Source: an uncultured bacterium | GTDB taxonomy: Bacteria > Methylomirabilota > Methylomirabilia > Methylomirabilales > CSP1-5 | Reading direction: 5' to 3' | DNA: 64,000 bases | Assembly: GCA_964558395.1 (NCBI GenBank) | Contig: CAZLDS010000013.1 | Coordinates: forward strand, 390-64,389 | Shown here: positions 1-14,559 of the stretch, in pieces | How the letters are laid out: each line of letters begins with the position of its first letter | Position numbering within the stretch: position 1 is the first letter of the stretch | Program-made: the position numbers and the translations under genes | Notes under the pieces: model-generated | Database searches by the model: none | Told to the model about the DNA's origin: nothing | Seen by the model: only the letters and a program-made list of their open reading frames with translations

Positions 1-372
1 TGCGGCAAGTGCGAGATCCTCAACTATCTCGATCCCTTCACCTTCTGGTTCTTCGAAGGGAAGGTGAAGTGCGCCGGCTGCGGTGCCATCTGGGCGGTGA
101 AGATCGACAACGGGGTCCGGGTCTCGGGTCCGACCGAGGCCCAGGCGCCCCACGATAAGCTCCCCGGGTTCGCGCAGTCGAAAGACTACAAGACCAAGAT
201 CACCGACACGACCAAGGTGAATCCGCCGGTCATGGCCCGGGCCGACTTCGTCGGCAAGCCGATCCCGATCACCAAGAGCATCCGGGGCAAGCCGGTGAGC
301 GGCGCGCCGCTGAAGGCCGAGGATTTGGTCGGCAGCCGGCCGCGTTTCATCATGAAGGGGGAACCGAAGTAG
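1..372 (+). CDS. Zn-ribbon protein, 5'-truncated by window edge
   Basis: Frame is open from base 1: CGKC-EILNYLDPFTFWFFEGKVK-CAGC, two CxxC pairs; first visible gene of a co-oriented run ending in the CoA ligase. Confidence 0.6.
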   Translation, partial: CGKCEILNYLDPFTFWFFEGKVKCAGCGAIWAVKIDNGVRVSGPTEAQAPHDKLPGFAQSKDYKTKITDTTKVNPPVMARADFVGKPIPITKSIRGKPVSGAPLKAEDLVGSRPRFIMKGEPK

Positions 373-384
373 GAGCGACTATAG

Positions 385-807
385 ATGCCCAAGCCGAAAA
401 AGAGAGCGGCGGGGCGGGGTCGGCGGCGTCCTGCGAAGGCAAAAGGAGCTGCCAAAGCGCGCCGGCCAAAGCCGAAGGCCAAGAAGCCGAAGGCTAAATC
501 GGCCAAGCGGCCAACCCGGAAAGGTCGCGTCGCTCCGAAAAAGAAGGCCCGAGCGGCCCGCAAGCCCGCGGCCTCGAAACCTGCCGCGCCCAAGGCCGTT
601 CGGCCGAAACCCGCGGCCCCCGCATCTGCTCCAGTCAAGCGGAAGGAGGAGACGAGGATGGCAGGACAAAATTGCCCGATTCACAATAGCCCTGACTGCT
701 TTAAGCCGGCGCTGGATGCCCACGTTCAAAAGGCATACGACGGCTACTGCACCAAGATCGACTGGCCCTACTGGAGGATCATCCCCAAGGGATGGAAGCC
801 CAAGTAA
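385..807 (+). CDS. Lys/Ala/Pro-rich histone-H1-like N-terminus plus small Cys/His C-terminal domain
   Basis: RBS ggag before ATG 385; about 90 aa of K/A/R/P low complexity, then MAGQNCPIHNSPDC...CTKIDWPYW; second strong RBS before ATG 658. Confidence 0.6.
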   Translation: MPKPKKRAAGRGRRRPAKAKGAAKARRPKPKAKKPKAKSAKRPTRKGRVAPKKKARAARKPAASKPAAPKAVRPKPAAPASAPVKRKEETRMAGQNCPIHNSPDCFKPALDAHVQKAYDGYCTKIDWPYWRIIPKGWKPK

Positions 808-976
808 CGCTCCGAGTGGGGTGATCGATACGTGGGATAAGCCACGGCTGTGACGAGCAGCCGTGGCTTATTTGTGCCTGGGGCGATGCCTTGACCGAAC
901 CGGAAGGGCCATGGTAGGGTGACGGTGCTTTTCGGGGTATTACCATTATTCTCACCGAGGAGAGGGGGAAGATGCC

Positions 977-1351
977 ATGAAGGTCGAATTTTATTACAGC
1001 AGTAAGGACGAGCCGGCGAAGCAATACCATTGTGACAATGCGAAGGCCCTGGAACTCGCGAAGCAACTGCAGGCGAAGGGGACCGACGTCAAGATCCAGG
1101 ACTGCAGCGAGCAACCCGCCAGCTTCATGACGTACAACGCGGCGGTGACCGGGCCCAGCGCCGCCAAGCGCGCGGTCTTTGGGACCAAAGGCGCGCTAGA
1201 GGAAGACTTCGGAAAAGCCGTCCCGGCCCTGCTCGTCTTCGAAAAAGAAGGGGACCGGTACCCCACCGAGGCTTATCCTCGAATGGATAAAGAAGAGAAT
1301 AAGCTGATCGGTCCCGAGGAGGCCCTGCAGAGACTGCTGAGCACAGCCTAG
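977..1351 (+). CDS. Hypothetical protein, possibly thioredoxin-like fold
   Basis: RBS gagggggaag; 124 aa, normal composition, 13 bp from the ligase; VPALLVF strand motif. Confidence 0.65.
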   Translation: MKVEFYYSSKDEPAKQYHCDNAKALELAKQLQAKGTDVKIQDCSEQPASFMTYNAAVTGPSAAKRAVFGTKGALEEDFGKAVPALLVFEKEGDRYPTEAYPRMDKEENKLIGPEEALQRLLSTA

Positions 1352-1364
1352 AGGAGGAGGTATC

Positions 1365-3041
1365 ATGGGCAAGGTTCCGGAAGGATGTCTTCCGCCCCAA
1401 GAGCTGTGGCCGGCCCGGATCTATAACCTCCCCGAGTACAAGGCCTACCCGCAGAAATTCAACAGTACCGAAGAGCTGCTGGACAAGCAGGTAGCCGCAG
1501 GGAAGGGAGATGGGCCCGCCATCCTCTTTGAGGATCGGAAAATCCCATACAAGGCGCTGCTCGGCATGGCCAACAAACTTGGCAGCAGCCTGAAAGCCTT
1601 GGGCATCGAGGAGGCGGACCGGGTGGCCTTGCGCGCCCCGAATATTCCCCCCGCGTTGGTGAGTAATTTCGCCGTCTTAAAGATCGGCGGAATCTTCCTC
1701 CCGACCTCCGCCCTCTTTTCGCGGGCCGAGATTGGTCACGTCTTTAACAATGCAGAGGTCAAGGCGGTCATCGTGGCCGGCGCGATGCTTGAGGAGCTCG
1801 AGAAGGCCAAGCCCGATTTGAAAACGTTGCAGCATATCATTGTCATTGGCGGCACGCCCGAGCAGCAGGCCGAATATAAGAAAAAAGGGTATCTCCTGTA
1901 CCAGGAGCTCGTGGATGGCGGGAAGCCGGAATGCGAACCGGTTCGCCGTGATCGGATGGATGTCTCGGTCCTGCTCTACACCTCCGGGACCACCGGTTTG
2001 CCCAAGGGGACGGTCCATTTCAATGAGGAGGCGCTGATCGTTCCCGACGGATTCGGGAAATACTGCTGGGGGGTGACCGAAAACGACGTCATCCTGAGCG
2101 CAGCGCCTATCGCGATGGCCGCCGGATACTCCGCGGTGGCTTCGATCCCCTACAGGTTCGGCGCCGCTGTCTCCATTTTTCCTCGCTTCAGCCCCGAGGG
2201 GATGCTACAGCAGATTCAAAACCACAAGGCGACGATCCTCTCGGCCCTCCCCACTGCCTATCGAAAGATGCATGAGGTTCCGGGTGCCGAGACCAAGTAC
2301 GACCTGAGTTCTCTCCGGATCTGTACGGGTGGGGGCGAGTCACTGACGGCAAAGACCTACCACGATTGGAAGGCCAAGTTCGGCCAGGAGATCTTCGAGG
2401 GGCTGGGGACCACCGAGATGATGTTTGTCTTCATCTCGGCGGCAGCCACAAAGAAGGTGAAGCCCGGATCCATCGGTCCGGCGGTTCCGGGATACGAAGT
2501 CAAGGTGATCAACGAAGAGGGGAAAGACTGCAAGCCGGGAGAAAGTGGCCAGCTCGTGGCCCGGGGCCCCACGGGGACCATGTACTGGCGCGATCCCGAG
2601 AAGCAAAAATCGGTCGTCAGGGGAGGCTGGTGCCGCGCCGGGGACATGGTCACCATGGATGAGGATGGCTACATCTGGTTCCTCTCCCGCGAGGATGATT
2701 TGATCAAGTCGTCCGGCTATCGGATTGGCCCGGAGGAGATCGAGGATGTTCTCGTCACCCACGCAGCCGTGGCGGATGCCGGCGTGGTCGGGATCCCAGA
2801 TACGGTGATGGGCCAAAAGACCAAGGCCTACGTCCAGCTCAAAGAGGGCCAGCAAGGCTCAGAGGCCCTCCAGCAGGAGCTAATCGAGTTTTGCCGGGGT
2901 AAGGTCGCCGTCTACAAGCTGCCGCGGGAGGTAGAGTTCGTGGACAAGATGCCGCGGGCAGCGGGGCCTGGCGGGCCCGGCACGGGGAAGCTCCTGCGGC
3001 GGGTCCTGAGACAGCGAGAAACAGAGAAGGCCAAGACGTAG
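1365..3041 (+). CDS. Acyl/aryl-CoA ligase (benzoate/2-aminobenzoate-CoA ligase-like ANL enzyme)
   Basis: RBS gaggagg; A3 YTSGTTGLPKG, A5 EGLGTTE, A7 RAGD, A8 REDDLIKSSGYRIGPEEIE, A10 GKLLRR. Confidence 0.9.
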   Translation: MGKVPEGCLPPQELWPARIYNLPEYKAYPQKFNSTEELLDKQVAAGKGDGPAILFEDRKIPYKALLGMANKLGSSLKALGIEEADRVALRAPNIPPALVSNFAVLKIGGIFLPTSALFSRAEIGHVFNNAEVKAVIVAGAMLEELEKAKPDLKTLQHIIVIGGTPEQQAEYKKKGYLLYQELVDGGKPECEPVRRDRMDVSVLLYTSGTTGLPKGTVHFNEEALIVPDGFGKYCWGVTENDVILSAAPIAMAAGYSAVASIPYRFGAAVSIFPRFSPEGMLQQIQNHKATILSALPTAYRKMHEVPGAETKYDLSSLRICTGGGESLTAKTYHDWKAKFGQEIFEGLGTTEMMFVFISAAATKKVKPGSIGPAVPGYEVKVINEEGKDCKPGESGQLVARGPTGTMYWRDPEKQKSVVRGGWCRAGDMVTMDEDGYIWFLSREDDLIKSSGYRIGPEEIEDVLVTHAAVADAGVVGIPDTVMGQKTKAYVQLKEGQQGSEALQQELIEFCRGKVAVYKLPREVEFVDKMPRAAGPGGPGTGKLLRRVLRQRETEKAKT

Positions 3042-3605: not shown

Positions 3606-4379
3606 GTGGGAGAAGATCGAGTGCCGGCGGTGGAGAGCGCGGTCCGGATCCTGAAGTTTCTGAAGGATCGGAACCACCGCCCGTGGGGGGTCTCGGAGCT
3701 GAGCCGGCCCCTCCAAGTCAACAAAAGCACGTGCTTCAACATTCTCAAGTCGTTAGCCCGGCATGGCCTGGTCGCCTATGACGAAGGGACGAAGAAGTAC
3801 GGCCTGGGATCGGGTCTCATCGAACTTGGGGGGGCCGCCTCGACGGCCACCAGCCGAGCGACGGTGGGAAGGCCCTTCCTGCAGGACCTCTTTGACGAGC
3901 TGAAGTTGACATGTCTGTTGGGTCAGCGATTTCAGGACCAAGTCATCATCGTCGATCGGGTGGAGGCTCTAGATCCCTTCCGGATCACAATTCCCGTGGG
4001 TCAGGCCCTCCCCGTGGGCCAGGGTGCCCTTGGACGGTGCTTTCTCGCGTACCTTCCGGAGGCGGATCTGGACCACCTGTGGTCACAGGGTGTGCTAGAG
4101 CAGGCCGATCCCCACAGAGGGCAACCGGTCGCCCAGATCTTGAAAGCCTTGGCCAAAGTCCGGCATCACGGATTTGCCGAGAGCTTTGGAGAAATCGCCA
4201 AGGGCGTGAATGCTGTGGCCGCCCCGATCTTCGATCACCGGGGTCATGTGGCACTGGCCCTTGGGGTGATTGGGTTTGCTTCCCTGCTTCCCCCCCGCCG
4301 ACTGGCCCACTGCGGCCGAAAGCTCCGCGAGGTCTCGGGGCTTATCTCCCGCATTATGGGAGGGCAGTCAAGACCCTGA
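3606..4379 (+). CDS. IclR-family transcriptional regulator
   Basis: VPAVESAVRIL, HTH GVSELSRPLQVNKSTCFNILKSL, C-terminal GALGRCFLAY and GVNAVAAPIFD...ALALGV. Confidence 0.92.
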   Translation: MGEDRVPAVESAVRILKFLKDRNHRPWGVSELSRPLQVNKSTCFNILKSLARHGLVAYDEGTKKYGLGSGLIELGGAASTATSRATVGRPFLQDLFDELKLTCLLGQRFQDQVIIVDRVEALDPFRITIPVGQALPVGQGALGRCFLAYLPEADLDHLWSQGVLEQADPHRGQPVAQILKALAKVRHHGFAESFGEIAKGVNAVAAPIFDHRGHVALALGVIGFASLLPPRRLAHCGRKLREVSGLISRIMGGQSRP

Positions 4380-4387
4380 AGTTCCCC

Positions 4388-4416
4388 TTGACGAGACCGA
4401 ATCCAGGTGCTATTCT
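4388..4416 (+). promoter_or_regulatory. Sigma70-type promoter of the U32 operon
   Basis: TTGACG 4388-4393, 17-bp spacer, TGc-TATTCT 4411-4416. Confidence 0.7.
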
Positions 4417-4427
4417 GCCAAGGGTAT

Positions 4428-4445
4428 CGTTCTATTGGTCGAACG
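4428..4445. promoter_or_regulatory. Candidate IclR operator 2
   Basis: CGTTCT-attggt-CGAACG, same arms and spacing as operator 1, between -10 and RBS. Confidence 0.6.
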
Positions 4446-4458
4446 GACGAGGACTCCT

Positions 4459-5382
4459 ATGTCGCTTATGGGTCGGGGAATCCTCTTGGCTCCTGCAGGG
4501 AGCGTGCAGGCGGCGAAGGCCGGCCTGGAGGCCGGGGCGGACGCGATCTATGTGGGACTCAAGGGGTGGAGCCGGGGAGGAGCCCGAGGCGAGCTGACCT
4601 CAGAGGAACTCCTGCGGGTTCTGGCGCTTGCCCGCGAAATGGGAAGAGCCGTCCAGCTTGCCGTCAACACCATCCCCAAAGGGCGCGAGGTCGATTTTCT
4701 GATCGAACGCCTCGGTGAAGTTACGGGCTGGGGGATTGGGGGAGTCATCCTCAACGACCCCGGTATCCTTGCCCGCATCCACGAATGCTACCCTGACCTA
4801 CCCCTGACCGCGAGTATCGGCTGTGGCGCGCTCAATCTGGACGATGTCGCCTTGCTGGAGGAAATTGGCGCCAGCTGCATCGTCCTGCCGGGGACGCTCG
4901 ATCCTGAGGAAGTCGCCGAGATCCGGCCCCATGTCAAAGCCCAGATCGAGGTCATGATCCACATGGTGGATGAGTTTCACCAACTGGGAAAGTGCTGGAT
5001 GCCAACCTATTACCGGACGAATCCCGCTCCAATGCCGGAGATGCCGGCTGACGGTGAGCGGCTCACCGGATCGATCAAGCGGGGCGGCGTGGGTATCTGC
5101 TTCAAAGTCTGCCAACAACCCTGGACCCTCTATCTGAATGCACAGGACAAGGGAGAACGCATTCTCCCGGCCCGGCAGGTGTCGCGGGTCCCTGAGGTCG
5201 GTGCCTACATCGAGGCAGGGATCGATGTGATCAAGCTGCAGGGAAGAAGCCTCCACCCGGACCAGGTTTTTTCCCTGGTCCGGCGGTTCCGCGTGGCCAT
5301 GGACCACGTCCGAAATGGTGGTCAGGACTTCGAGTTGCTGCCGTTTGAGCTGCCGGCCTCCTGGGTGGTGGTCGGACGATGA
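4459..5382 (+). CDS. U32-family Fe-S protein, UbiU-like copy A
   Basis: Start set at ATG 4459 after gagga; LLAPAGS, GADAIYVG, ILNDPG, KCW, CFKVC, IKLQGR. Confidence 0.88.
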   Translation: MSLMGRGILLAPAGSVQAAKAGLEAGADAIYVGLKGWSRGGARGELTSEELLRVLALAREMGRAVQLAVNTIPKGREVDFLIERLGEVTGWGIGGVILNDPGILARIHECYPDLPLTASIGCGALNLDDVALLEEIGASCIVLPGTLDPEEVAEIRPHVKAQIEVMIHMVDEFHQLGKCWMPTYYRTNPAPMPEMPADGERLTGSIKRGGVGICFKVCQQPWTLYLNAQDKGERILPARQVSRVPEVGAYIEAGIDVIKLQGRSLHPDQVFSLVRRFRVAMDHVRNGGQDFELLPFELPASWVVVGR

Positions 5383-5403
5383 TTAAGCGAGGACCGATGA
5401 CAT

Positions 5404-5491
5404 TTCGAATTCCGACATTCGAATTTCGGATTTGTGGACTCCCCCTTCTTGCTCTCGGCGACTTCGGACATCGGACGTCGGACATCGGACG
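5404..5491. repeat. Heptamer tandem repeats between U32 genes
   Basis: TCGGAC(A/G) x4 at 5464-5491 plus TTCGAAT-type units. Confidence 0.8.
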
Positions 5492-5498
5492 GTGAATC

Positions 5499-6449
5499 AT
5501 GAACCCTGAACCGTTTGAACTGAATACGTCGATCTCCAATATGAAGGACCTCATGGTCTCGGACCTCGGTCCGTATGACGCGATCTACCTCGGGAATCCC
5601 TACTGTCGGGACTATGAAGCCAATTTCTTGGAAGACCTGGATGATCTGCGGGCCGGCATCCGCCGCTGCCGTGAGAAGGGCCGTAGAGTCTATCTCACGA
5701 CCTATGCGGCCCCTCGAAACTACTTCCTGCCACAAATCCGTCGGGCAATTGCCGTTGCGGCAGAGGAAGGGGTGGACGCCGTTGAGGCGCACAACCTTGG
5801 GGTGGTTCGGATCGTTCACCGGGAGTTTCCCTCCCTCGCGATCCACATCGGCGGCTTTGCCAATGTCTACACCGATGCGGGAGCCGAGGTTCTCCGCGAC
5901 TACGGCGGGACCCGCGTGACGCCCAACTACGAGCTCTCCCTGGAAGAGATGGAAGGGATGGCGAAAAGTACCCGCCTCCCGCTCGAAATCCTCGTCCACG
6001 GGAAGGTGCCGTTAGGGATCTCCGACTACTGCTTCCTGTTGGAGTTCGAAAAGGCCTGGGGGATGCCATGTCCGGATCTGTGCCAGCAGGACCTGTTCCT
6101 CCGTCAGGGGGAGTGGGCGATGAAGTCGGTAGGGAAAGGGATCCTAAGCGGTCGGGATGTCTGTATGCTGGAGCATCTGCCGCGTCTCGGGGCGGCGGGC
6201 TTTCGCGTGTTCCGAATCGAGGCAATCTCGGAGGATCCCGCGTACCGTCGAGACATCGGGGCGGTCTACCGGGAGGCCTTGGAGCACGCGTTCAGTGATG
6301 GCTACGAGATTCGTGATGCGTGGTGGCAAAAGATCCAGGCCCACGCAAAGGTAGGAGTGTGTAACGGGTTCTACTTTGGTCAATCGGGACAACTTTATAT
6401 TGGCAATCAGCAATCGGCCGTCGGCGATCAGCTCAGGATCATTTCCTAA
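5499..6449 (+). CDS. U32-family Fe-S protein, UbiV-like
   Basis: YDAIYLGNPYC, VEAHNLG, ELS, PLGISDYC-x12-C-x3-C, FRIE; Cys layout matches UbiV. Confidence 0.88.
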   Translation: MNPEPFELNTSISNMKDLMVSDLGPYDAIYLGNPYCRDYEANFLEDLDDLRAGIRRCREKGRRVYLTTYAAPRNYFLPQIRRAIAVAAEEGVDAVEAHNLGVVRIVHREFPSLAIHIGGFANVYTDAGAEVLRDYGGTRVTPNYELSLEEMEGMAKSTRLPLEILVHGKVPLGISDYCFLLEFEKAWGMPCPDLCQQDLFLRQGEWAMKSVGKGILSGRDVCMLEHLPRLGAAGFRVFRIEAISEDPAYRRDIGAVYREALEHAFSDGYEIRDAWWQKIQAHAKVGVCNGFYFGQSGQLYIGNQQSAVGDQLRIIS

Positions 6450-6485
6450 TTGCTGATGGCTGACAGTGTGAATGAGGAGGAGACG

Positions 6486-7451
6486 ATGGTCGAGCTACTC
6501 GTGCCGGCGGGCAACATCGAAATGGTCGAGGCGGCCGTAGAAAACGGCGCCAATGCCCTGTATGTCGGGCCCAAGGGATGGAGTCGGCGGCGGGATGCTT
6601 TTGAAATCACCGATGAGTCGCTGCGGGACGCTGTTCGGATTGCCCATGCCGGGAGGGTGAAGGTTCGGGCAGGAGTCAATACGCATCCCACGTCTGCGGA
6701 GCTTCCCATGCTGCTACGACGCCTCGAGGTGTGGGTCCGGGACGGCATTGACGGAGTCATACTGAGCGATGTGGGGGTCATGGCGGCAGTCCACCGGGCG
6801 TTTCCCGCCCTGACCATCCATGCAAGCATCGGGGCCAACATCCTGAATGACGAAGACATTCGCTTGTATCGAGAGATCGGGGTCAGCCAGGTCGTGGCCG
6901 ACACCAAACTCTCGCTCAAGGAGCTGAGGTCGCGCCGGGAGATCGAGGTGGGGGTTGAAGTCTTGATTCACGCCAACAAGTGCTATACGTATCTGGGCAA
7001 GTGCTGGATGTCCCCCTATCACCGCCTCGAGCGAGGCCACGATGAAACTGGGAAAGACTTCTTTAAGGGAAGTCCGAACCGGGGCGGCCTGGACTACCGT
7101 GTCTGTCTCGAGGCGTGGAGCCTCTGGCGAGGAAATCAGGACCGGTGGGCAGACCGCGTGGCGCTCAAAAATGACGCCTTCTTCCTCCTCGACGATATTC
7201 CCCCCCTGATCGACATGGGAGTCCACACGCTCAAGATCCAGGGTCGCGAGTACGCGGTCGACCTGGTGGGCCGGATGGTCAAGTTTTACCGAGACCTCAT
7301 CGACGTGTACACGGCCGATCCCCAGGGGTTTGATCTCGGGCCCTGGAAGGCACGCCTCGCCGAGATTCAGGCGCAGCGGGATCTCGAACGAGCCAAGGGA
7401 ACTTTGGGTCTCTTCGACGAAGCGAGGCAACCGGTCCGCGCGTGCCGATAA
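6486..7451 (+). CDS. U32-family Fe-S protein, UbiU-like copy B
   Basis: Start ATG 6486 after gaggagg; ELLVPAGN, GANALYVG, ILSDVG, C-x6-C, LKIQGRE. Confidence 0.9.
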   Translation: MVELLVPAGNIEMVEAAVENGANALYVGPKGWSRRRDAFEITDESLRDAVRIAHAGRVKVRAGVNTHPTSAELPMLLRRLEVWVRDGIDGVILSDVGVMAAVHRAFPALTIHASIGANILNDEDIRLYREIGVSQVVADTKLSLKELRSRREIEVGVEVLIHANKCYTYLGKCWMSPYHRLERGHDETGKDFFKGSPNRGGLDYRVCLEAWSLWRGNQDRWADRVALKNDAFFLLDDIPPLIDMGVHTLKIQGREYAVDLVGRMVKFYRDLIDVYTADPQGFDLGPWKARLAEIQAQRDLERAKGTLGLFDEARQPVRACR

Positions 7452-7503: not shown

Positions 7504-7749
7504 GTGGGGTGCAAGCGGTGCGGCAACGCCGAGGCCGGACAGTTTCAGCGGGTGGACAGCTTTGAGCGGATCGCGTTGGCCGATGACCCCGCCGATCCCA
7601 ATTGCGGCCACTACTACGTCGAGGTGGTCCACGTGATGCGTTGTCCCGCCTGTGAGCATCAGCAGGAAGCCATTGCGACGCGCTGGCCGTTCCAAACCCT
7701 GCGCGAGGCGCAGACGGAACGCGATAGCCATATCATCGGCAAGGGATGA
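7504..7749 (+). CDS. Small Zn-ribbon protein
   Basis: RBS aggaggg, GTG start; CKRC...C...CPAC. Confidence 0.6.
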   Translation: MGCKRCGNAEAGQFQRVDSFERIALADDPADPNCGHYYVEVVHVMRCPACEHQQEAIATRWPFQTLREAQTERDSHIIGKG

Positions 7750-7774: not shown

Positions 7775-8233
7775 TTATCTCCGCCAGCGTGTCAGGCGCC
7801 GGGCGGTCAGTTCTCCCCAGAGGAAGGTGAAAAGCGCGTGGCGGGCCGTCTTGCGAATCCGATCGTAGTGGCGACACGTCCCTTCCGCAAAGTGGGTACG
7901 CGTGCCGTTGGCGCGGCAGAGGAGGACCCGCCCGGAGACCGCATTGTGGCGGAGGCCCAGCGGCGCGACATTGAGGACCGTAACATCTACTGGGAGATGG
8001 AGCGCTCGGCTGAGGTCCTTCGCGAGAGTCATCTGGTATTGGTGAACGGCTCGCCGGGTCAGATGGCCATTATCCAGGTAGACCGCCACGTCGATATCCC
8101 GAAATCTCGATCCGTTGATGAAGGAACCGTGGAGATACGCGAAGAGGACCTCTTCGCGGAATGCCAGCAGGTCATGGAGGGCGGAGGTGACGTGCGCCTT
8201 TTCTCGAGAGGTCAGTCGATACCTGGCGTACAT
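7775..8233 (-). CDS. Minimal nucleotidyltransferase (MntA-like)
   Basis: FAYLHGSF...RDIDVAVYL and VDVTVLNVAPLGLR, the MNT signature. Confidence 0.8.
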   Translation of the reverse strand: MYARYRLTSREKAHVTSALHDLLAFREEVLFAYLHGSFINGSRFRDIDVAVYLDNGHLTRRAVHQYQMTLAKDLSRALHLPVDVTVLNVAPLGLRHNAVSGRVLLCRANGTRTHFAEGTCRHYDRIRKTARHALFTFLWGELTARRLTRWRR

Positions 8234-8339
8234 GGCCTATGGCCTCAACGTCTGTGACGGCTCGGTCCCCCTCGGGTCCTTGTCAAAGCGGCAGTACTCG
8301 ACACGGTTGGGAAAACCATACGATAAAAGGCACGAACAA

Positions 8340-8714
8340 TCAAGGGGAGGAATCCTCATAGATCGTCCACGCGTCTGCCCGCTTCGCCTGAACCTCCGCC
8401 CTCAGGACCTCCTGGCCCCCGATCTTCAGCCTGACAAAATACGGGGTCTTTGCCTCGTCGCGCCCCTGTGGTGGTAGATAGTGAACCTGGATCTGCTGGT
8501 CAGGAAATTCGGTTGCCACCATGCCGGCCCAGTCGAAATCGGGGCTGTACGTCCCGGCTTCATCGAGGCCCCCGACATTGGTTTCCAACGTCATGGTGCT
8601 GGGGGGAAGACCCTGCAGCTTCTCCCTCAGCCACTCGGCCAGAGAGGAACTGATCCCGCCCTGCAGGGCTGGCATTGTGATGGCGTATTCTCCCCAGAGT
8701 TTCATCGTGATCAC
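8340..8714 (-). CDS. Hypothetical protein
   Basis: 124-aa ORF with protein-like composition; start uncertain. Confidence 0.45.
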   Translation of the reverse strand: MITMKLWGEYAITMPALQGGISSSLAEWLREKLQGLPPSTMTLETNVGGLDEAGTYSPDFDWAGMVATEFPDQQIQVHYLPPQGRDEAKTPYFVRLKIGGQEVLRAEVQAKRADAWTIYEDSSP

Positions 8715-8796
8715 ACCTCAGATAATTCTAATATAAACATCATATGACAATAGAACAATAAACCGCAATGGAGCATTTCCCCTCCCTAAGATCACT

Positions 8797-9846
8797 CTAT
8801 TGTTCCACTGTTCCGGGCTCTTTCCCTGGGCTTTCCATTTGCTGGTCTCGCTCCATCGACATCCGCCGGCGGATGCGACGGAAGGTGAGCATGTCCCGTT
8901 TCAGATCCGGGTGTCCTATGCTCTTATCGAGTGAGATGACCTCTTCGAGCAGGCCGAGGGCCTTGCGATACTCTCCCTTTTCCTCGTAGATAATCGCGAG
9001 ATTATGCATGGGAACGGTCAGGCGAAGGCGGTCGTCCTGCTCCCGCAAGATCTGAATGGCGCGTTCGTACGTCTCTTGTGCGCCATCGAGGTCACCCATC
9101 TCCTTGCGGGCAAGCCCGAGGCTGTTCAGAATCGTGGCACTTCCTAAGGGATCCCCAAGCGCCTCACGCATCGCATAACTCTGCTCATAATATTCGGCCG
9201 TCTGCCGCCACTCTCCCTTGTGATGGTGCACGCGGCCCAAATTGCCGAGGGTGATGGAGAGCCCTCGGCGGTCCCCGAGCCCTTCCTGAATGGTCCGGCT
9301 CTGGCCATAGGCATTGAGGGCTTCATCCCATTTCTCCGTTTTGGCGTACAGAGTGCCGATATTATTCCACGTCAACGCGATGCCCCCTCGATCTCCTAGC
9401 TCCTCTTTGATTTTCATGCTCTCACGGTAGCACTCGAGGGCACGGTCCCAGTCCAGCTTTCCTTCGTAGACATTCCCCATCTTGCCAAGGGTGGCGGCAA
9501 CCGCGGACCGATCTGCAAGCTCCTCGTGAAGACGCCGGGCTCGGTCCAAAGACTCCAACGCCCGCTCCCACGCACCCTGTTGAGGTAAGAGGTGCCCCAT
9601 GAGGGCGGCGACAGATGCTTCCCCCGCTTTATCCCCTATTTCCTCGAAGACTGTCAGGCTTTCCTCAAAGAGGGAGAGGGCCTCTCGATACCTTCCCTGT
9701 GCCTGGTAAAAGGTCCCGATCTTCGTAAGGGCCCACCCTGTCCCCGACGCATCCCCCGCGGTCTTGCGATATTCCAGTTCTGCCATCAGCTCGGAGAGGC
9801 TGACGTGTCCCTCTGCCCCGACAGGCTGCCGATCTCCCTCGTGCAT
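8797..9846 (-). CDS. Tetratricopeptide-repeat protein
   Basis: About 7 tandem 40-aa TPR-like units (LxxIGxxYxxxGxWxxALxxYxxS). Confidence 0.88.
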   Translation of the reverse strand: MHEGDRQPVGAEGHVSLSELMAELEYRKTAGDASGTGWALTKIGTFYQAQGRYREALSLFEESLTVFEEIGDKAGEASVAALMGHLLPQQGAWERALESLDRARRLHEELADRSAVAATLGKMGNVYEGKLDWDRALECYRESMKIKEELGDRGGIALTWNNIGTLYAKTEKWDEALNAYGQSRTIQEGLGDRRGLSITLGNLGRVHHHKGEWRQTAEYYEQSYAMREALGDPLGSATILNSLGLARKEMGDLDGAQETYERAIQILREQDDRLRLTVPMHNLAIIYEEKGEYRKALGLLEEVISLDKSIGHPDLKRDMLTFRRIRRRMSMERDQQMESPGKEPGTVEQ

Positions 9847-9856
9847 GCGTCGTTCC

Positions 9857-10066
9857 TTATGCGGGTGAAGCCTGCGGCCTCTTAAAGATCATGAGGGCTC
9901 CCACTGTCCCATAGGCGACCCCGTCCCGATTGGGGGCGATCAGGGGAACCGCAGACACCATCTCCCAGCCTTCTTGACCCACGTTGTTCAGCCAGTCCAA
10001 TCCGCTCTCCAGTCCGTCAGGCGTTTCCTTAAACATCACCATGCGATCCTGATACTCCCAGTGCAT
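9857..10066 (-). CDS. DUF4177-like small protein
   Basis: WEY...LNNVGQEGWEMVSAVP...LMIFKRP; RBS ggagg. Confidence 0.75.
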   Translation of the reverse strand: MHWEYQDRMVMFKETPDGLESGLDWLNNVGQEGWEMVSAVPLIAPNRDGVAYGTVGALMIFKRPQASPA

Positions 10067-10108
10067 CGATGATCCTCCATTTGATGGCGTTGTGTACGTA
10101 AAGCGTTC

Positions 10109-11470
10109 TTAGCCTGCTGCCTCAGGGTCGAGGAGGGTATCAGGCAGGCTAAACTCTGTCGCGATGCCCTTCCGCACGTCCAGCAGAAGGGTCTGTCGAT
10201 CCTCCGGACGGGCCCTCTCGACCTCGAGCATGCGCACGGTGACTTCCCGGTTGAATTCCCCCAGGCTCTCCGGGTTCGATTGCTTTTGGTATGCCCCGAT
10301 GATTGTGTCTTGCAGGGCGTGGTAGAGTGGCTCATTCACAAAGGACATTTGAGTGGTCGGATCATGGAGCATCTGATATTGATGGCTCATGAAGATCCGG
10401 CTAATATGACGAGCCATCTGGGGAGCATCCATATGTGCGTTATCTTCCAGGAGCAGGCGGAGTCGTTCCTGATCGGGCATAAGCGCCCAGACCTCTGATG
10501 AGATACTTGGGCGCGTGACCAGGCTTCCTGACCGATACCGATTCGTAAAGCTCAGGATGGTCCGCCCTCCGAGCTTTTGGGCTAAGCGCTGCACAAGCTC
10601 TTTGAGTTCTGCCTCAGGGACCTCGGAAAAGGAGGGATACCGATCCTTGAGGGGCGAGAGTGCGGGGCGCATCTCCTCGACCCTCATAAGCTCGGTCAGG
10701 GCCTTGACAGAGACCTGGAGTTCCTGGCGCGACATCCCCTCGGTATCCGCGGACGGCGTTTCTTCCGCCATCTCTTTTCCGGCAAGATTAATCCGCCTCA
10801 TGGCACCGTCAAAGAGACTTTCCAGCGGTGTGTCGAGGGAAATCGCGTGAGCGATCTCCTCCCGGACGGCCCGCAGGGTCTCTTCCGCACTCCGGGGTGA
10901 GGCCTGATCTAGTTCCTGGGTTTTGGGCAAGATCCTCCCGGTCAGAACCTCAATCTGTTCGGGAGGGAGCGCGGCGAGGGACTCCTGAATCTCAAAATAG
11001 CTGGGGAACTCGATGGCTGCCATCGGAAGGCTGGGTTCATTATAAAGATCCAGGGTGCGGCAGAACAGGAACCGCGCCAGCTCGCGGCGAAGTTGCGGTA
11101 CCGTCAGACCCGCATCCTCTGAAGCGAGCAAATGCCACTTTTCCGCGCAGGACATACTTTGCAGCTCCTCTTCTGTGAGGGAATTCAGGCCCGAGCCCTC
11201 GACCTGGGCCTTGCGCTCCAGGTCCGCCAGGGCCAGCTGGGTGTACTGGGGAACAAAGGCGGCGACGAAGGCCTGCATCCCCTCGAGGGGAAGGTGTTCG
11301 CTATAGCCTTGTAAGCAGGCGGTCCGGCTGGTCTCATCCAAACAGTCGGCAAGCACGCGGACAATCCAGCGGAGTTGGTCGTCAGGCATCGCCCCAACTT
11401 TGGAGAGGACTTCCTGCTCCCGGGTGAGAATGAATCGCCGGATCTGTTTGATCCGGGGCCCCTTATCCAT
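10109..11470 (-). CDS. Hypothetical all-helical protein with two-fold internal repeat
   Basis: 453 aa; N- and C-halves align by eye; overlaps the stop of the upstream gene. Confidence 0.75.
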   Translation of the reverse strand: MDKGPRIKQIRRFILTREQEVLSKVGAMPDDQLRWIVRVLADCLDETSRTACLQGYSEHLPLEGMQAFVAAFVPQYTQLALADLERKAQVEGSGLNSLTEEELQSMSCAEKWHLLASEDAGLTVPQLRRELARFLFCRTLDLYNEPSLPMAAIEFPSYFEIQESLAALPPEQIEVLTGRILPKTQELDQASPRSAEETLRAVREEIAHAISLDTPLESLFDGAMRRINLAGKEMAEETPSADTEGMSRQELQVSVKALTELMRVEEMRPALSPLKDRYPSFSEVPEAELKELVQRLAQKLGGRTILSFTNRYRSGSLVTRPSISSEVWALMPDQERLRLLLEDNAHMDAPQMARHISRIFMSHQYQMLHDPTTQMSFVNEPLYHALQDTIIGAYQKQSNPESLGEFNREVTVRMLEVERARPEDRQTLLLDVRKGIATEFSLPDTLLDPEAAG

Positions 11471-11828
11471 CCCGCATCTCCTGGCTCTCCAGGGCCTTCA
11501 GTAGCTCTTCGATAATCGCGTCTCGTTGATCTGCTTGGATATGCCAAAAGCCGTTCACCGGGATCTCGTCCTCGCTGTCCATCAGTTCCCCAATGTTAAC
11601 GATATGGGGACCCACCGCCGTCTGCCCCAAGAAATGTGAAAAGTAATCGACGAGGGCAAAAGACTCTCCACGCAGCGAGTGAACATCTACGGTCCCATGG
11701 TTAGGTCCGATCAAGAGAAAGAATTCCAGTTCCTCTTGGCTTCCGTCGCGGCGCGCACGCCCCTCCAGCTGGAAGCCCCCGCGTCCCGTCTCTTTCTTCA
11801 AGAGCCGAAATCGCCAACCCATGGTCAT
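11463..11828 (-). CDS. Hypothetical protein
   Basis: Start trimmed to ATG 11828 because the upstream extension is a heptamer repeat; 8-bp overlap with the 453-aa gene. Confidence 0.65.
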   Translation of the reverse strand: MTMGWRFRLLKKETGRGGFQLEGRARRDGSQEELEFFLLIGPNHGTVDVHSLRGESFALVDYFSHFLGQTAVGPHIVNIGELMDSEDEIPVNGFWHIQADQRDAIIEELLKALESQEMRDG

Positions 11829-11835
11829 TCTGACT

Positions 11836-11862
11836 GACGACCGACGACCGACGACCGACGAC
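11836..11862. repeat. Heptamer tandem repeat
   Basis: GACGACC x3.9; inverted partial copy near 11955. Confidence 0.8.
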
Positions 11863-11974
11863 AACAAAAACCATCGCCAGTATGCAGACAGTCGGAAAAT
11901 CCAATTTGATACGAAACGGAATTACTCATGCGTCTTCTTTCGGTCATGGGTTAACGGTCGTCGGTCAACGTTAG

Positions 11975-12307
11975 TCAAATGCTCCAGGGGCACCACGCCC
12001 CCCAACCAAAAGCTTGGTACTCATCCTCTCCCATCCACTCCGCCAAGTGGGTGCGATGCTCTGCCAAGGATTGGAACTCCTGATTAAACTCGAGCGTCAC
12101 GATGTGCCGGTCCTCGAGGCAACAGTACCGGATCGCATATCTGTTTTCAGACAAGGGGCAGGCATCAATCGGCCGAATGTCCTCGAACATGTGGCCAAGG
12201 TTTTCCAGGATCTGGTACAGGTCATAGGACCTTCCATTAATGGTCAATTCGACGCTCCCGGTCCCGAGTTCACCGAATCGCTTCTCCACGGTTTCCCTGT
12301 CGATCAT
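11975..12307 (-). CDS. Hypothetical protein
   Basis: 110 aa, RBS gaggagtagcgggg, protein-like composition. Confidence 0.7.
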   Translation of the reverse strand: MIDRETVEKRFGELGTGSVELTINGRSYDLYQILENLGHMFEDIRPIDACPLSENRYAIRYCCLEDRHIVTLEFNQEFQSLAEHRTHLAEWMGEDEYQAFGWGAWCPWSI

Positions 12308-12339
12308 CCCCGCTACTCCTCTCTACGCACCGTTAGCTG

Positions 12340-12443
12340 TCCGGCGTCAGCGACTAGGTTAGAGACGGGACACCTCAGTCTTGAACCTAGGGTCTCCGGT
12401 CTCTTGTGTCTCGCTGCTGATTGCTGATGGCTGATAACTGAGC
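12340..12443. repeat. Heptamer tandem repeats
   Basis: GCTGAT(T/G/A) x3 at 12416-12436 plus GGTCTCC-type units. Confidence 0.75.
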
Positions 12444-12457
12444 GCCATTTTGGTCAT

Positions 12458-12655
12458 CTATGGGGTCTCCTTGAGCCGATCCATCAGGTCGGCAAGATCC
12501 GAGGCGCTCCGCAATGGCTTCGAATCGGTGTCCCGCAAGTCGATTAGGCGATCCATGACCTGCCGCGCGGTGCGACCCGCCGGTTTCCAGTTGATCTGAA
12601 GAGGAAAGAGAGTTCGGCCTGTGAGGCCTCCGCCCACCCGGGCGATTCCGAGCAC
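12458..12655 (-). pseudogene. Short paralogous copy of the C-terminus of the upstream E2-like protein
   Basis: LFPLQINW...VMDRL...ASDLADLMDR matches LFPLAVPW...VMDRL...ASDLANLMYR of 12858-13664; in-frame stop shortly upstream. Confidence 0.55.
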
Positions 12656-12857
12656 CTCTCCGTCGCCCGATGGAGAAAGAGGGGCCGGGGACGCCTTGGT
12701 TTGCGTCGATCTCGCCGCTCAAGTTTTCTCACCATTTAGACCGGGGAATCGGCCCTGAAAGAAACACCATTTGAATTCTATTGGGGGGGAGGGAGGATGT
12801 CAACAGCAAAGGGGCATCTGAAGTGGTGACTTGGACAGGCCTTACCTCGTATGTGAT

Positions 12858-13664
12858 TCACTTCAACTCGGGAATGCGGTACATGAGATTGGCCAGATCC
12901 GAGGCATCGCCGATGGCTCGCTGATGCTGGGGACCGGATTCGACCAGGCGATCCATGACGTCGGCGACGGTCAATTCCAGTTTCTCCCAGGGCACCGCGA
13001 GGGGGAAGAGGGGTTCGGCCTCTGAGGCTTCTTCCCAGGCCTCCAGGGTGTGGATACGGGGATCGAGCCCCCGGGCCCGTTCGAAACAGTTGCCCGCAAT
13101 GTCGGTGTTGAAGCCGGTGCCCCAAAAAAAGTCGAGCAGCATCGTTACCTGCTGGACGAGGGGCCGCTCCCAGAGATCCTCCGGCCTCCCCCTAAGACAG
13201 GCCCGACAGGCGGAGGGCTTTTCGGGATCGGCCTGCACGTTCCAGAGATTCGGCATGAGCAGAACGTCATTCGGGCTTTGCACCGGGGCTATCCGATAGT
13301 AGACGCGCATATCCTCGAGGCTGGCCTGAAAGAACAGAAAGAAATAGACGATGTAGGGAAAGGCGAGACGGTACGTCTGGTACTCTCCCCCCTTCCCCAT
13401 CTGGTCGGCGCTCCAGCGGATCAGACGCACCTGGGGAGGTTGCTCGACGCAACAGACAGTGGCGGTCCCGTCCACCTTGATGATTCGGGCTCCCGGGGGT
13501 AAGAGGAGATGATTTCCGCGACCCGGGCGACGGGTGGCTATCGTGATTTCTCGAAGGAAGTCTTGGAGAGAAACCTGTCGCTCGAGGACCGGAGGGTCTC
13601 CGCCCCGATACAAAAAGACATTCTGCCCTTCTATTTTAATCCGCTCCACCGCTCCCGCTCCCAT
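12858..13664 (-). CDS. Prokaryotic E2-like protein (Prok-E2 family D / PRTRC protein B-like)
   Basis: YRLAFPYIVYFF...VLLMPNLWNV...CRACL...FFWGTGFN resembles the recalled family pattern. Confidence 0.55.
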   Translation of the reverse strand: MGAGAVERIKIEGQNVFLYRGGDPPVLERQVSLQDFLREITIATRRPGRGNHLLLPPGARIIKVDGTATVCCVEQPPQVRLIRWSADQMGKGGEYQTYRLAFPYIVYFFLFFQASLEDMRVYYRIAPVQSPNDVLLMPNLWNVQADPEKPSACRACLRGRPEDLWERPLVQQVTMLLDFFWGTGFNTDIAGNCFERARGLDPRIHTLEAWEEASEAEPLFPLAVPWEKLELTVADVMDRLVESGPQHQRAIGDASDLANLMYRIPELK

Positions 13665-13724
13665 CCACAGCCTCGTCTAGCTTAGGGGTCTCCCATCCAC
13701 CTGTCAAGGCAGCACAACAGCAGA

Positions 13725-13832
13725 CCAAAGACGGGAGACAGGGGACCGGAGACCGAAGGTTTCAGGTCTCAGGACTGAGGACTGAGGTTTCAGGCTTCGA
13801 ATGACCTCAGCACTCAGCCCTCAACGCTCAGG
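13725..13832. repeat. Inverted pair of heptamer arrays
   Basis: ctcaggactgaggactgagg facing cctcagcactcagccctcaacgctcagg; GGAGACC units. Confidence 0.8.
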
Positions 13833-14559
13833 TCTTCTCCCTCAACCATGTCACTGCCCGTTGGAAGACTTCAGGGTTGAATTTGAGGTCTATATGGTTG
13901 AACCAGCGGTGGAGGTACGGAAGAATCGTCGGGGGAAGGGGGATGTCGGGGTGCTGGAACGTCGTCACCGGAGCCAGGGTGCCCTGGGGGAGATCTCCTG
14001 CCATGCGGCGAATCCCTTCGATCAGGGTGAGGATATCTTGCTCCCCGTGCAGGAGCAGGACCGGCCGGTCGGGTTGCGTGACTTCCTCCATCTGGCGAAG
14101 CAATTGGAGAATATAGTCCGGCTGAGGGCTCCGTACCGTCGTTGTGCCGAAGGCCAAGAGCATCTGGCGTCCCTCCTCGGAGGGACGACTCACGACAGAG
14201 GGGGAGATGGCGACGACGAGGTCGGCGGACGAGATGAGGGCCAATCGCCCACCCAGGCTATGACCCAGCGCGGCGACTTTCCCGTAGCGACGGAGCCAGG
14301 CGAGGGCAGCCTCCAGATCGTGCCGCAATCCCTCGTCGAGGGGGACGGGGTGCTCCCCGTGCCCACGAATGTCGATGGTCATGCTCGCCCATCCCTCTTC
14401 GCAAAGTCGTGCCGCGATCCCCAGCATCTGCTCTTTGTTTCCGCCATAGCCATGCACAAGCGCCACGCCGCCGCGGGGGGTTTGGGGGAGAAAGAGGTAC
14501 GCGGGGACGGCATGGTTGTCCGCCGTTCGGAGATCCGTGACTCGGAGGAATTGCATCAT
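13828..14559 (-). CDS. Alpha/beta hydrolase
   Basis: LVHGYGG, DIRGHG, nucleophile elbow GHSLGG, LLLHGEQD. Confidence 0.88.
   Translation of the reverse strand: MMQFLRVTDLRTADNHAVPAYLFLPQTPRGGVALVHGYGGNKEQMLGIAARLCEEGWASMTIDIRGHGEHPVPLDEGLRHDLEAALAWLRRYGKVAALGHSLGGRLALISSADLVVAISPSVVSRPSEEGRQMLLAFGTTTVRSPQPDYILQLLRQMEEVTQPDRPVLLLHGEQDILTLIEGIRRMAGDLPQGTLAPVTTFQHPDIPLPPTILPYLHRWFNHIDLKFNPEVFQRAVTWLREKT

Follow-up and report, generated by a model that had tools for sequence, protein, structure and literature searches.

Conserved Glu and Asp at two different predicted iron–sulfur ligand positions in a trio of U32-family proteins from Methylomirabilota and Acidobacteriota

A 64,000-nucleotide stretch of DNA from an uncultured bacterium of the Methylomirabilota (NC10; contig CAZLDS010000013.1; referred to below as the window) contains three consecutive genes, here termed A, B, and C, whose products belong to the U32 family. 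In A and C, one of the cysteines expected to hold an iron–sulfur cluster is replaced by an acidic residue, namely Glu172 at the first ligand position of A and Asp203 at the third ligand position of C, while B keeps a complete set of cysteines. Because the two carboxylates are fixed at ligand positions and no other conserved cysteine is found in the same chains, site-differentiated clusters are the most economical explanation. Based on these sequence comparisons we propose, with moderate confidence, that A and C each bind a [4Fe–4S] cluster through three cysteines and one carboxylate. Two paralogous subunits, each with a different fixed exchange of cysteine for carboxylate, would represent the signature of clusters of this kind.

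All three gene products scored above the PF01136 gathering score of 22.4 bits (Table 1), confirming their membership of the U32 family, and a whole-genome search with this model showed that they are the only U32 genes of the host genome (3.27 Mb, 97.8% complete). Among named organisms, those nearest to the host are Methylomirabilales MAGs, CSP1-5 being one of them. The start of C was placed at the ATG at 6486 and not at the TTG at 6450, because a GAGGAGG Shine–Dalgarno sequence lies just 5′ of the former and the homologues are 322 aa long. Scores against equivalog models fell below the respective cut-offs: A and C gave 91.3 and 121.4 bits with the UbiU model NF047963 (cut-off 440 bits), B gave 71.7 bits with the UbiV model NF047965 (cut-off 275 bits), and the best score of any member of the trio with the TrhP equivalog was 126.4 bits (cut-off 534 bits). 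A sequence search of the PDB with A and C returned no match at E ≤ 0.001.

Ligand positions were assigned by alignment to UbiU, UbiV, TrhP, and RlhA, with the reference sequences taken from the Escherichia coli K-12 record. The ligands of the E. coli proteins have been established by experiment as C169/C176/C193/C232 in UbiU and C39/C180/C193/C197 in UbiV, and most other U32 groups have the motif CX6CX15CX3/4C in common (PMC6747719). In A, the equivalent motif reads E172-x6-C179-x34-C214-x3-C218 (TGC codons for the cysteines at 4993, 5098, and 5110, respectively), and in C it reads C166-x6-C173-x29-D203-x3-C207. Neither protein has the canonical four cysteines of CX6CX15CX3/4C, as found in TrhP, RlhA, and PepU32#1–4, or the CX6CX16CX38C set of UbiU; both are without a Cys at the UbiU C232 position, and their fourth ligand position is the CX3C site instead of the C232 site. 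B has the UbiV-type arrangement CXnCX12CX3C, in which an N-terminal C36 is followed by C178-x12-C191-x3-C195, and these four residues align with C39, C180, C193, and C197 of UbiV. Cys2 and position 3 are separated by 34 residues (A) and 29 residues (C), as opposed to 15 in TrhP and RlhA; the insertion in A carries a conserved GSxKRGG motif, and that in C an invariant GSPNRGGLD motif. A first-pass annotation, made from the letters of the window, had described the motifs of A and C (E-x6-C...C-x3-C and C-x6-C...D-x3-C), a UbiV-type set in the middle copy, and long insertions between the cysteine pairs. The motifs could be read directly and were recovered in the alignments, and the other two observations held equally well.

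The assignment of E172 to the Cys1 position and of D203 to the Cys3 position agreed in MAFFT, 79-sequence, and profile–profile alignments. When the A and C families were compared with hhalign (probability 100%), E172 of A paired with C166 of C, and C214 of A paired with D203 of C. Each swap lies two base changes away from TGC; as the swaps are also fixed in homologues that are only 50–68% identical overall, they are not attributable to chance or sequencing error.

Table 1. Coordinates of the U32 trio, its replaced ligand positions, and neighbouring genes in the window
Feature	Coordinates	Strand	Details
AMP-forming acyl/aryl-CoA ligase	1365..3041	+	558 aa; Pfam AMP-binding
IclR-family regulator, directly 5′ of trio	3606..4379	+	Pfam IclR_C, HTH_IclR
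U32 subunit A, UbiU-like	4459..5382	+	307 aa; Pfam PF01136, 84.2 bits
Glu172 of A, Cys1 position (= C169 of E. coli UbiU)	4972..4974	+	GAG codon
U32 subunit B, UbiV-like	5499..6449	+	316 aa; Pfam PF01136, 119.5 bits
U32 subunit C, UbiU-like	6486..7451	+	321 aa plus stop; Pfam PF01136, 122.5 bits
Asp203 of C, Cys3 position (= C193 of E. coli UbiU)	7092..7094	+	GAC codon
Cys-rich protein, CxxC ... CxxC, directly 3′ of C	7504..7749	+	81 aa; RUBY_RBDX, E = 0.025 (weak)

Conservation of the two carboxylates was then followed through the families. Among 119 database homologues of A (51–90% identical), Glu occupies the Cys1 position in 117 and Gln in two. In a 91-sequence alignment of the A family (mean column identity 59%), C179, C214, and C218 are invariant, E172 is conserved at ≥90%, and no further conserved Cys could be detected; overall, about 98% of more than 150 homologues have the set E-C-C-C, with Gln in the remainder. 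For C, the motif C-x6-C...D-x3-C was present in all 120 homologues (65–95% identical), and C166, C173, D203, and C207 are invariant throughout the 86 aligned sequences of the family, where no other Cys is conserved. Both families also keep the flanking motifs GKCWM and GSxxRGG. The substitutions first noticed in the window are therefore conserved in the homologues examined (Glu in ~98%, Asp in 100%), and no other conserved Cys that might complete a four-Cys site is present in the A or C chains. In the B family, six cysteines are invariant in 120/120 homologues, comprising the four of UbiV type together with C222 (codon 6162–6164) and C288 (codon 6360–6362).

Given that the three remaining cysteines of A and C are invariant, these alignments indicate that the metal site has almost certainly been kept in both proteins. 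A very improbable alternative is that A, C, or both are degenerate, cluster-less paralogues with a scaffold or regulatory role, in which the cofactor has been lost and the swaps are a sign of this. Two U32 groups, PepU32#5 and #6, have been reported to lack a conserved four-Cys motif (Pelosi et al., PMC6747719), and pseudo-enzyme subunits are common in paralogous complexes, but the constancy of the three cysteines, GKCWM, and GSxxRGG in more than 100 sequences from several phyla would be unexpected after loss of a metal site.

To place the trio across species, species-representative genomes were scanned, whereby 117 relatives of C were found and the best 80 were kept. The search patterns contained the Asp motif, so that the scan is no test of Asp, whereas A and B were tested independently. 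Wherever a locus was not interrupted by a contig end (71 cases), the genes stood in the order A-B-C, their junctions being short or overlapping; in the remaining nine of the 80 loci, contig ends lie within about 1 kb of C. At the species level, A had E-C-C-C in 69 of the 71 loci, Q-C-C-C in one, and was cut in one, and B had all six cysteines wherever it was covered. The locus with the Gln-type A (L046) has a partner C that still carries Asp. This locus is labelled as a Thermoplasmata archaeon and another, L069, as a Patescibacteria bacterium, which probably reflects mis-binning.

Relatives of the trio are widespread, occurring in species-level genomes that number more than 100 and represent Methylomirabilota, Acidobacteriota, and other lineages. 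The kept loci come from Methylomirabilota, Acidobacteriota (Thermoanaerobaculia, Terriglobales/Acidobacteriaceae, Korobacteraceae, and Sulfotelmatobacter), Anaeromyxobacteraceae, Acidithiobacillales, and Rokubacteria; a few additional bins bear improbable labels. Within the phylum of the host, about 43 of 251 genomes have orthologues of the trio and several complete genomes lack them, which makes the trio accessory and not core. From the obligatory synteny, and by analogy with UbiU–UbiV, A, B, and C are probably subunits of one heteromeric complex.

A maximum-likelihood tree was built with both ligand columns omitted. B grouped with E. coli UbiV (SH-aLRT 91, long branch), and A formed a monophyletic, Glu-bearing clade (SH-aLRT 99) that includes more distant Glu proteins. 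C likewise formed a clade (SH-aLRT 99), and its sister (SH-aLRT 93) is a clade with all four cysteines, named C′. The change from Cys3 to Asp has a single origin, from this four-Cys sister clade, and is later than the appearance of Glu; at the Cys1 position, at least five state changes occurred in the wider clade. One trio (L017:5117-8372) combines a Glu-type A, a six-Cys B, and a four-Cys C′, and on a short 4.1-kb contig (L016:1250-4104) a C′ gene is followed by family III CoA-transferases. These two C′ proteins are natural controls for the Asp variant. The first-pass annotation had described the loss of ligands in the two UbiU-like copies as complementary. This stands insofar as different ligand positions are hit, but the two swaps are not a coupled event, because Glu is older and occurs in the trio whose third subunit has four cysteines.

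Replacements at the Cys1 position were also compared across the wider clade. Where Cys1 was lost and no compensating Cys is present, the residue is E in 18 cases, D in 4, N in 2, Q in 2, S/T in 2, and G in 1, counts that are not phylogenetically independent; most of these residues are oxygen donors. In four-gene U32 clusters of the Methylomirabilis oxyfera type, a Cys three positions away (CPGKC) takes over, and the residue at the original site varies (P, Q, T, N, or H). This pattern favours a functional replacement of thiolate by carboxylate. The nearest non-orthologous matches, P0244 and P0245, have D-C-C-C. A movement of Asp from position 1 to position 3, with the composition of three cysteines plus Asp being retained, was considered for this reason and was rejected, as the tree has a four-Cys clade as the sister of C.

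Structures of A and C were predicted with AlphaFold2 using the family alignments. Both gave confident TIM barrels, with a mean pLDDT of 76.6 and pTM of 0.79 for A, and a mean pLDDT of 80.0 and pTM of 0.82 for C. When the model of C was searched against the PDB with Foldseek, matches were to the cluster-less U32 structure 5D88 and to generic TIM barrels; 5D88 was the sole U32 structure among these matches, which included no cluster-bound U32 structure.

Several points weigh against ligation by three cysteines and a carboxylate, or against the role proposed for it below. The cluster loops of the models have pLDDT values below 50 (residues 173–216 of A, and 171–179 and 199–202 of C). Gln takes the place of Glu in rare A orthologues (P0238, P0242, and L046, the last at L046:5114-6013), and a residue that is polar or lies in the second sphere would account for these variants no less readily than an obligatory ligand. 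Asp is not needed for the general chemistry, since the third subunit of the L017 trio has four cysteines and the C′ gene of L016 has CoA-transferase neighbours of the same kind. The extra cysteines of B could, in principle, serve as ligands in trans. Finally, the module of CoA-related genes described below is not adjacent to the trio in Thermoanaerobaculia and in some Terriglobales.

The proposed ligation has a close variant, in which A and C hold three-Cys clusters and the acidic residue is not a ligand. The cluster would be either [3Fe–4S], a type with higher potentials, or [4Fe–4S] with a fourth iron that, like its counterpart in aconitase, IspH, and radical-SAM enzymes, is accessible to water, substrate, or prephenate, and Glu172 and Asp203 would act as general acid/base or substrate-binding residues. 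Such an arrangement agrees with the presence of three invariant cysteines, and no fourth, in A and C. It is also in keeping with the exchange of Glu for Gln in A and with the N, Q, S, or T that related lineages have at position 1, all of which are poor iron ligands and good hydrogen bonders, and the mechanism proposed for U32 enzymes needs a strong oxidant (PMC10990095). Asp203, however, has no Asn or Ser variants in 120 homologues, and Glu172 is kept in ~98%, which is tighter than would be expected of a generic polar residue, and we regard this alternative as rather unlikely. Both arrangements give a site-differentiated cluster, and sequence cannot separate them; should the carboxylates make no contact with iron, what is left is a sequence signature specific to the family.

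The extra cysteines of B bear on a further possibility, that the missing ligand is supplied in trans. C222 or C288 of B, or a small Cys-rich partner, would then complete an all-Cys cluster at the A–B and C–B interfaces, with Glu and Asp as bystanders. The numbers fit, in that B has exactly two extra invariant cysteines and A and C are each short of exactly one, and the A, B, and C genes were never found apart. There is also precedent for relocated ligands, as Cys1 of UbiV comes from the N-terminus and the fourth Cys of UbiU lies 38 residues downstream (PMC6747719). E. coli UbiV has no equivalents of C222 and C288, but the B-type proteins encoded in clusters of the M. oxyfera and Rokubacteria types do have them. 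These cysteines are invariant even beside four-Cys partners, both the CPGKC...CxxxC proteins of the M. oxyfera type and the C′ of L017, which makes them a feature of the B family and not a specific compensation. Moreover, C222 and C288 align to segments that, in single-chain U32 proteins, come after the protein's own cluster motif, and ligation in trans leaves the fixation of Glu and Asp unexplained. Taken together, these points make a ligand from another subunit distinctly improbable; the role of C222 and C288 may be that of a second metal site, a catalytic Cys, or an inter-subunit ligand.

Returning to ligation by three cysteines and a carboxylate, clusters of this composition have precedents outside the U32 family. 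A Glu completes the [4Fe–4S] cluster of IspG/GcpE and of HydF, and an Asp that of Pyrococcus furiosus ferredoxin; three cysteines and an Asp are likewise found in the NB cluster of DPOR, in Bacillus subtilis Fnr, and in NsrR. On binding of the substrate oxygen to the unique iron of IspG, its Glu is released. The trio resembles these proteins in having three cysteines plus Glu or Asp where relatives have Cys, and differs from them in that the folds and families are unrelated and that ligation in the trio is deduced from sequence.

On this basis, A-B-C would be a heteromeric Fe–S enzyme of the U32 'O2-independent hydroxylase' family and an elaboration of the UbiU–UbiV heterodimer, in which one subunit (B) is UbiV-like and two (A and C) are UbiU-like. 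B would carry a normal all-Cys [4Fe–4S] cluster, whereas in A and C the fourth iron would be held by Glu172 at ligand position 1 and by Asp203 at ligand position 3, respectively. A weaker and exchangeable oxygen ligand would mark one 'unique' iron, which might shift the potential of the cluster or, on release of the carboxylate, bind an oxygen of the substrate or of an oxygen donor, in the manner of the IspG Glu. As the swap positions differ, the unique iron would point differently in A and C. Its substrate would most probably be a carboxylic acid, probably aromatic, that is first converted to the CoA thioester and then oxidized or hydroxylated independently of O2; in the host genome the enzyme would be made on demand under an IclR repressor. 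We infer cluster binding by A and C, oxygen ligation, complex formation, hydroxylase chemistry, and the nature of the substrate from such comparisons, and the same applies to the open or shifted-potential iron site and the catalytic specialization of the subunits suggested in the first-pass annotation.

A more specific form of this proposal would have the trio hydroxylate an aryl-CoA or related acyl-CoA, with the carboxylate-ligated irons of A and C as the catalytic sites and B as an electron relay only. In this form, Glu or Asp would swing off and the cluster would bind the oxygen of the substrate or oxygen donor, in a reaction akin to those of IspG and IspH. We advance it tentatively and consider it unlikely. 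A mechanism with the substrate on the cluster, like that of IspH, has already been raised for U32 enzymes (PMC11574389), and whether their [4Fe–4S] clusters act as electron relay or in substrate activation is debated (PMC10990095, PMC11574389). For this debate, the trio offers natural 'ligand mutants' and a concrete test object. Should the irons of A and C prove catalytic, the trio would provide for anaerobic hydroxylation of aromatic acids independent of both molybdenum and O2 in soil and groundwater Acidobacteriota and NC10.

The proposed substrate is suggested by the linked CoA genes. In NC10 relatives, the gene order is an IclR gene, two family III CoA-transferase genes, a gene for a 135-aa zinc-ribbon-like protein, one or two genes for small Cys-containing proteins, and an AMP-forming ligase gene, followed by a second IclR gene, A, B, and C, and a gene for an 81–87-aa CxxC protein. 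The window begins inside the 135-aa gene, with the CoA-transferases lying just beyond its 5′ end. The best solved relatives of the ligase are anthranilate-CoA and benzoate-CoA ligases. The module of CoA-transferases, small proteins, and ligase precedes the trio in NC10 and follows it in 16 Acidobacteriota loci, and the survival of this linkage through rearrangement is good evidence that trio and module share a function. The trio points to a metabolism linked to CoA, probably that of aromatic acids, in bacteria of soil and groundwater that are abundant but poorly cultured. Across the module (window 1–3041; L004:1057-6944; L064–L095 at about 8000–14000), the CoA-transferases are about 455–470 aa long, and the module also holds a 124-aa protein and a small Cys-containing protein, which in the host genome has a Lys/Ala-rich N-terminal tail. 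None of the small neighbouring proteins in the window (a 123-aa fragment and proteins of 140, 124, and 81 aa) gave a significant Pfam or NCBIfam family.

The nearest NCBIfam models of the IclR-family regulator in front of A are BhcR and PcaR/PobR, and the order of an IclR gene before A recurs in relatives. Between the two genes, a promoter scan indicated a promoter-like site at 4388–4416, and a palindrome of the type CGTTC-N-GAACG (4424–4443) lies between this site and the start of A, as would fit an IclR operator, for which it is a candidate. The 81-aa protein encoded 3′ of C has counterparts of 48–79% identity at the same place in NC10 loci and is absent in Acidobacteriota loci; it is possibly a zinc-ribbon or rubredoxin-like partner, and might serve as an electron carrier.

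A housekeeping function was also considered, in which the trio stands in for UbiU–UbiV (ubiquinone), TrhP (tRNA ho5U), or RlhA (rRNA ho5C), and its neighbours are irrelevant. The three genes are, after all, the only U32 genes of the genome, and in some Terriglobales the genes around the trio are cell-wall genes only. When the host genome was searched by tblastn with E. coli UbiT, UbiC, and UbiG, none or only weak generic methyltransferase matches were obtained, and UbiA gave only prenyltransferase matches of 27% identity. No CmoA or CmoB matches were found in the host genome, nor was a TrhO orthologue, for which only rhodanese-domain fragments matched. The genome therefore does not combine UbiT with ubiquinone genes, as the UbiUVT ubiquinone pathway does, and the absence of UbiT, UbiC, UbiG, CmoA, and CmoB orthologues argues against a role in ubiquinone or cmo5U formation. 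The scores far below the UbiU, UbiV, and TrhP cut-offs, the patchy distribution in the phylum (~43/251 genomes), the apparent IclR control in this genome, and the linkage to the CoA module in two gene orders all speak against this explanation too. With partner genes missing and with this distribution and regulation, a housekeeping role was rejected as very improbable.

UbiU–UbiV is a proven heterodimer with one cluster in each subunit (PMC6747719) and functions as a ubiquinone hydroxylase that depends on prephenate and not on O2 (Pelosi et al. 2019, PMC6747719; Kazemzadeh Ferizhendi et al. 2024, PMC10990095). Prephenate as the source of oxygen has been shown in vivo, and for UbiU-V only (PMC10990095). 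The trio resembles this pair (YhbU/YhbV of E. coli) in belonging to the same Pfam family, in having a UbiV-like subunit encoded beside UbiU-like subunits, and, likely, in forming a heteromer with one cluster per subunit. It differs in having three subunits instead of two, at 20–27% identity; in the exchange of a different Cys for Glu or Asp in A and C, each with 14–19 extra residues between Cys2 and Cys3; and in the two additional invariant cysteines of B. Furthermore, the host genome is without UbiT or an evident ubiquinone pathway, and the neighbours of the trio are CoA-transferases and an aryl-CoA ligase in place of ubi genes. With TrhP (YegQ) and RlhA (YdcP), the trio shares the TIM-barrel U32 domain and a cluster motif that aligns column for column. 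These two, however, are single-chain RNA hydroxylases with four cysteines and C-terminal extensions (449 and 653 aa), whereas the trio proteins are about 310 aa long without extra domains, and their host genome has neither cmoA nor cmoB.

To our knowledge, U32 proteins are the only aromatic-ring hydroxylating enzymes that use an organic oxygen donor instead of O2, and we know of no in vitro assay or cluster-bound structure reported for them. In the U32 literature searched, nothing was found on the present subfamilies or on ligands other than Cys, clusters being described only as all-Cys. The nearest published group is PepU32#6, for which the reference is D5MIQ1 from M. oxyfera and which is without a well-conserved four-Cys motif (Kimura et al. 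2017; Pelosi et al. 2019, PMC6747719). PepU32#6 is probably the same broad clade of short NC10-type U32 proteins as the trio. It was published as one family with poorly conserved cysteines, in contrast to the subfamilies found here, each of which has a strict and distinct ligand set (E-C-C-C, C-C-D-C, shifted C-x3-C, D-C-C-C, or C-C-C-C); this resolution of the clade is a refinement of the PepU32#6 picture.

In the NC10 genome G052 (a single contig of 2,752,854 bp, probably M. oxyfera), four paralogues are 33–37% identical to C. A conserved cluster of four U32 genes, different from the trio, is found in this genome (L014:4866-10086, minus strand) and in a second locus (L015:1911-6777). It consists of one B-type gene and three genes with the shifted CPGKC...CxxxC motif, with a gene for an NMT1/THI5-like binding protein between them, and it adjoins genes for a PEP-utilising (PPDK_N) enzyme, an aminotransferase, and a PAS–LuxR regulator. 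Some NC10 genomes contain both the four-gene U32 cluster and the A-B-C trio.

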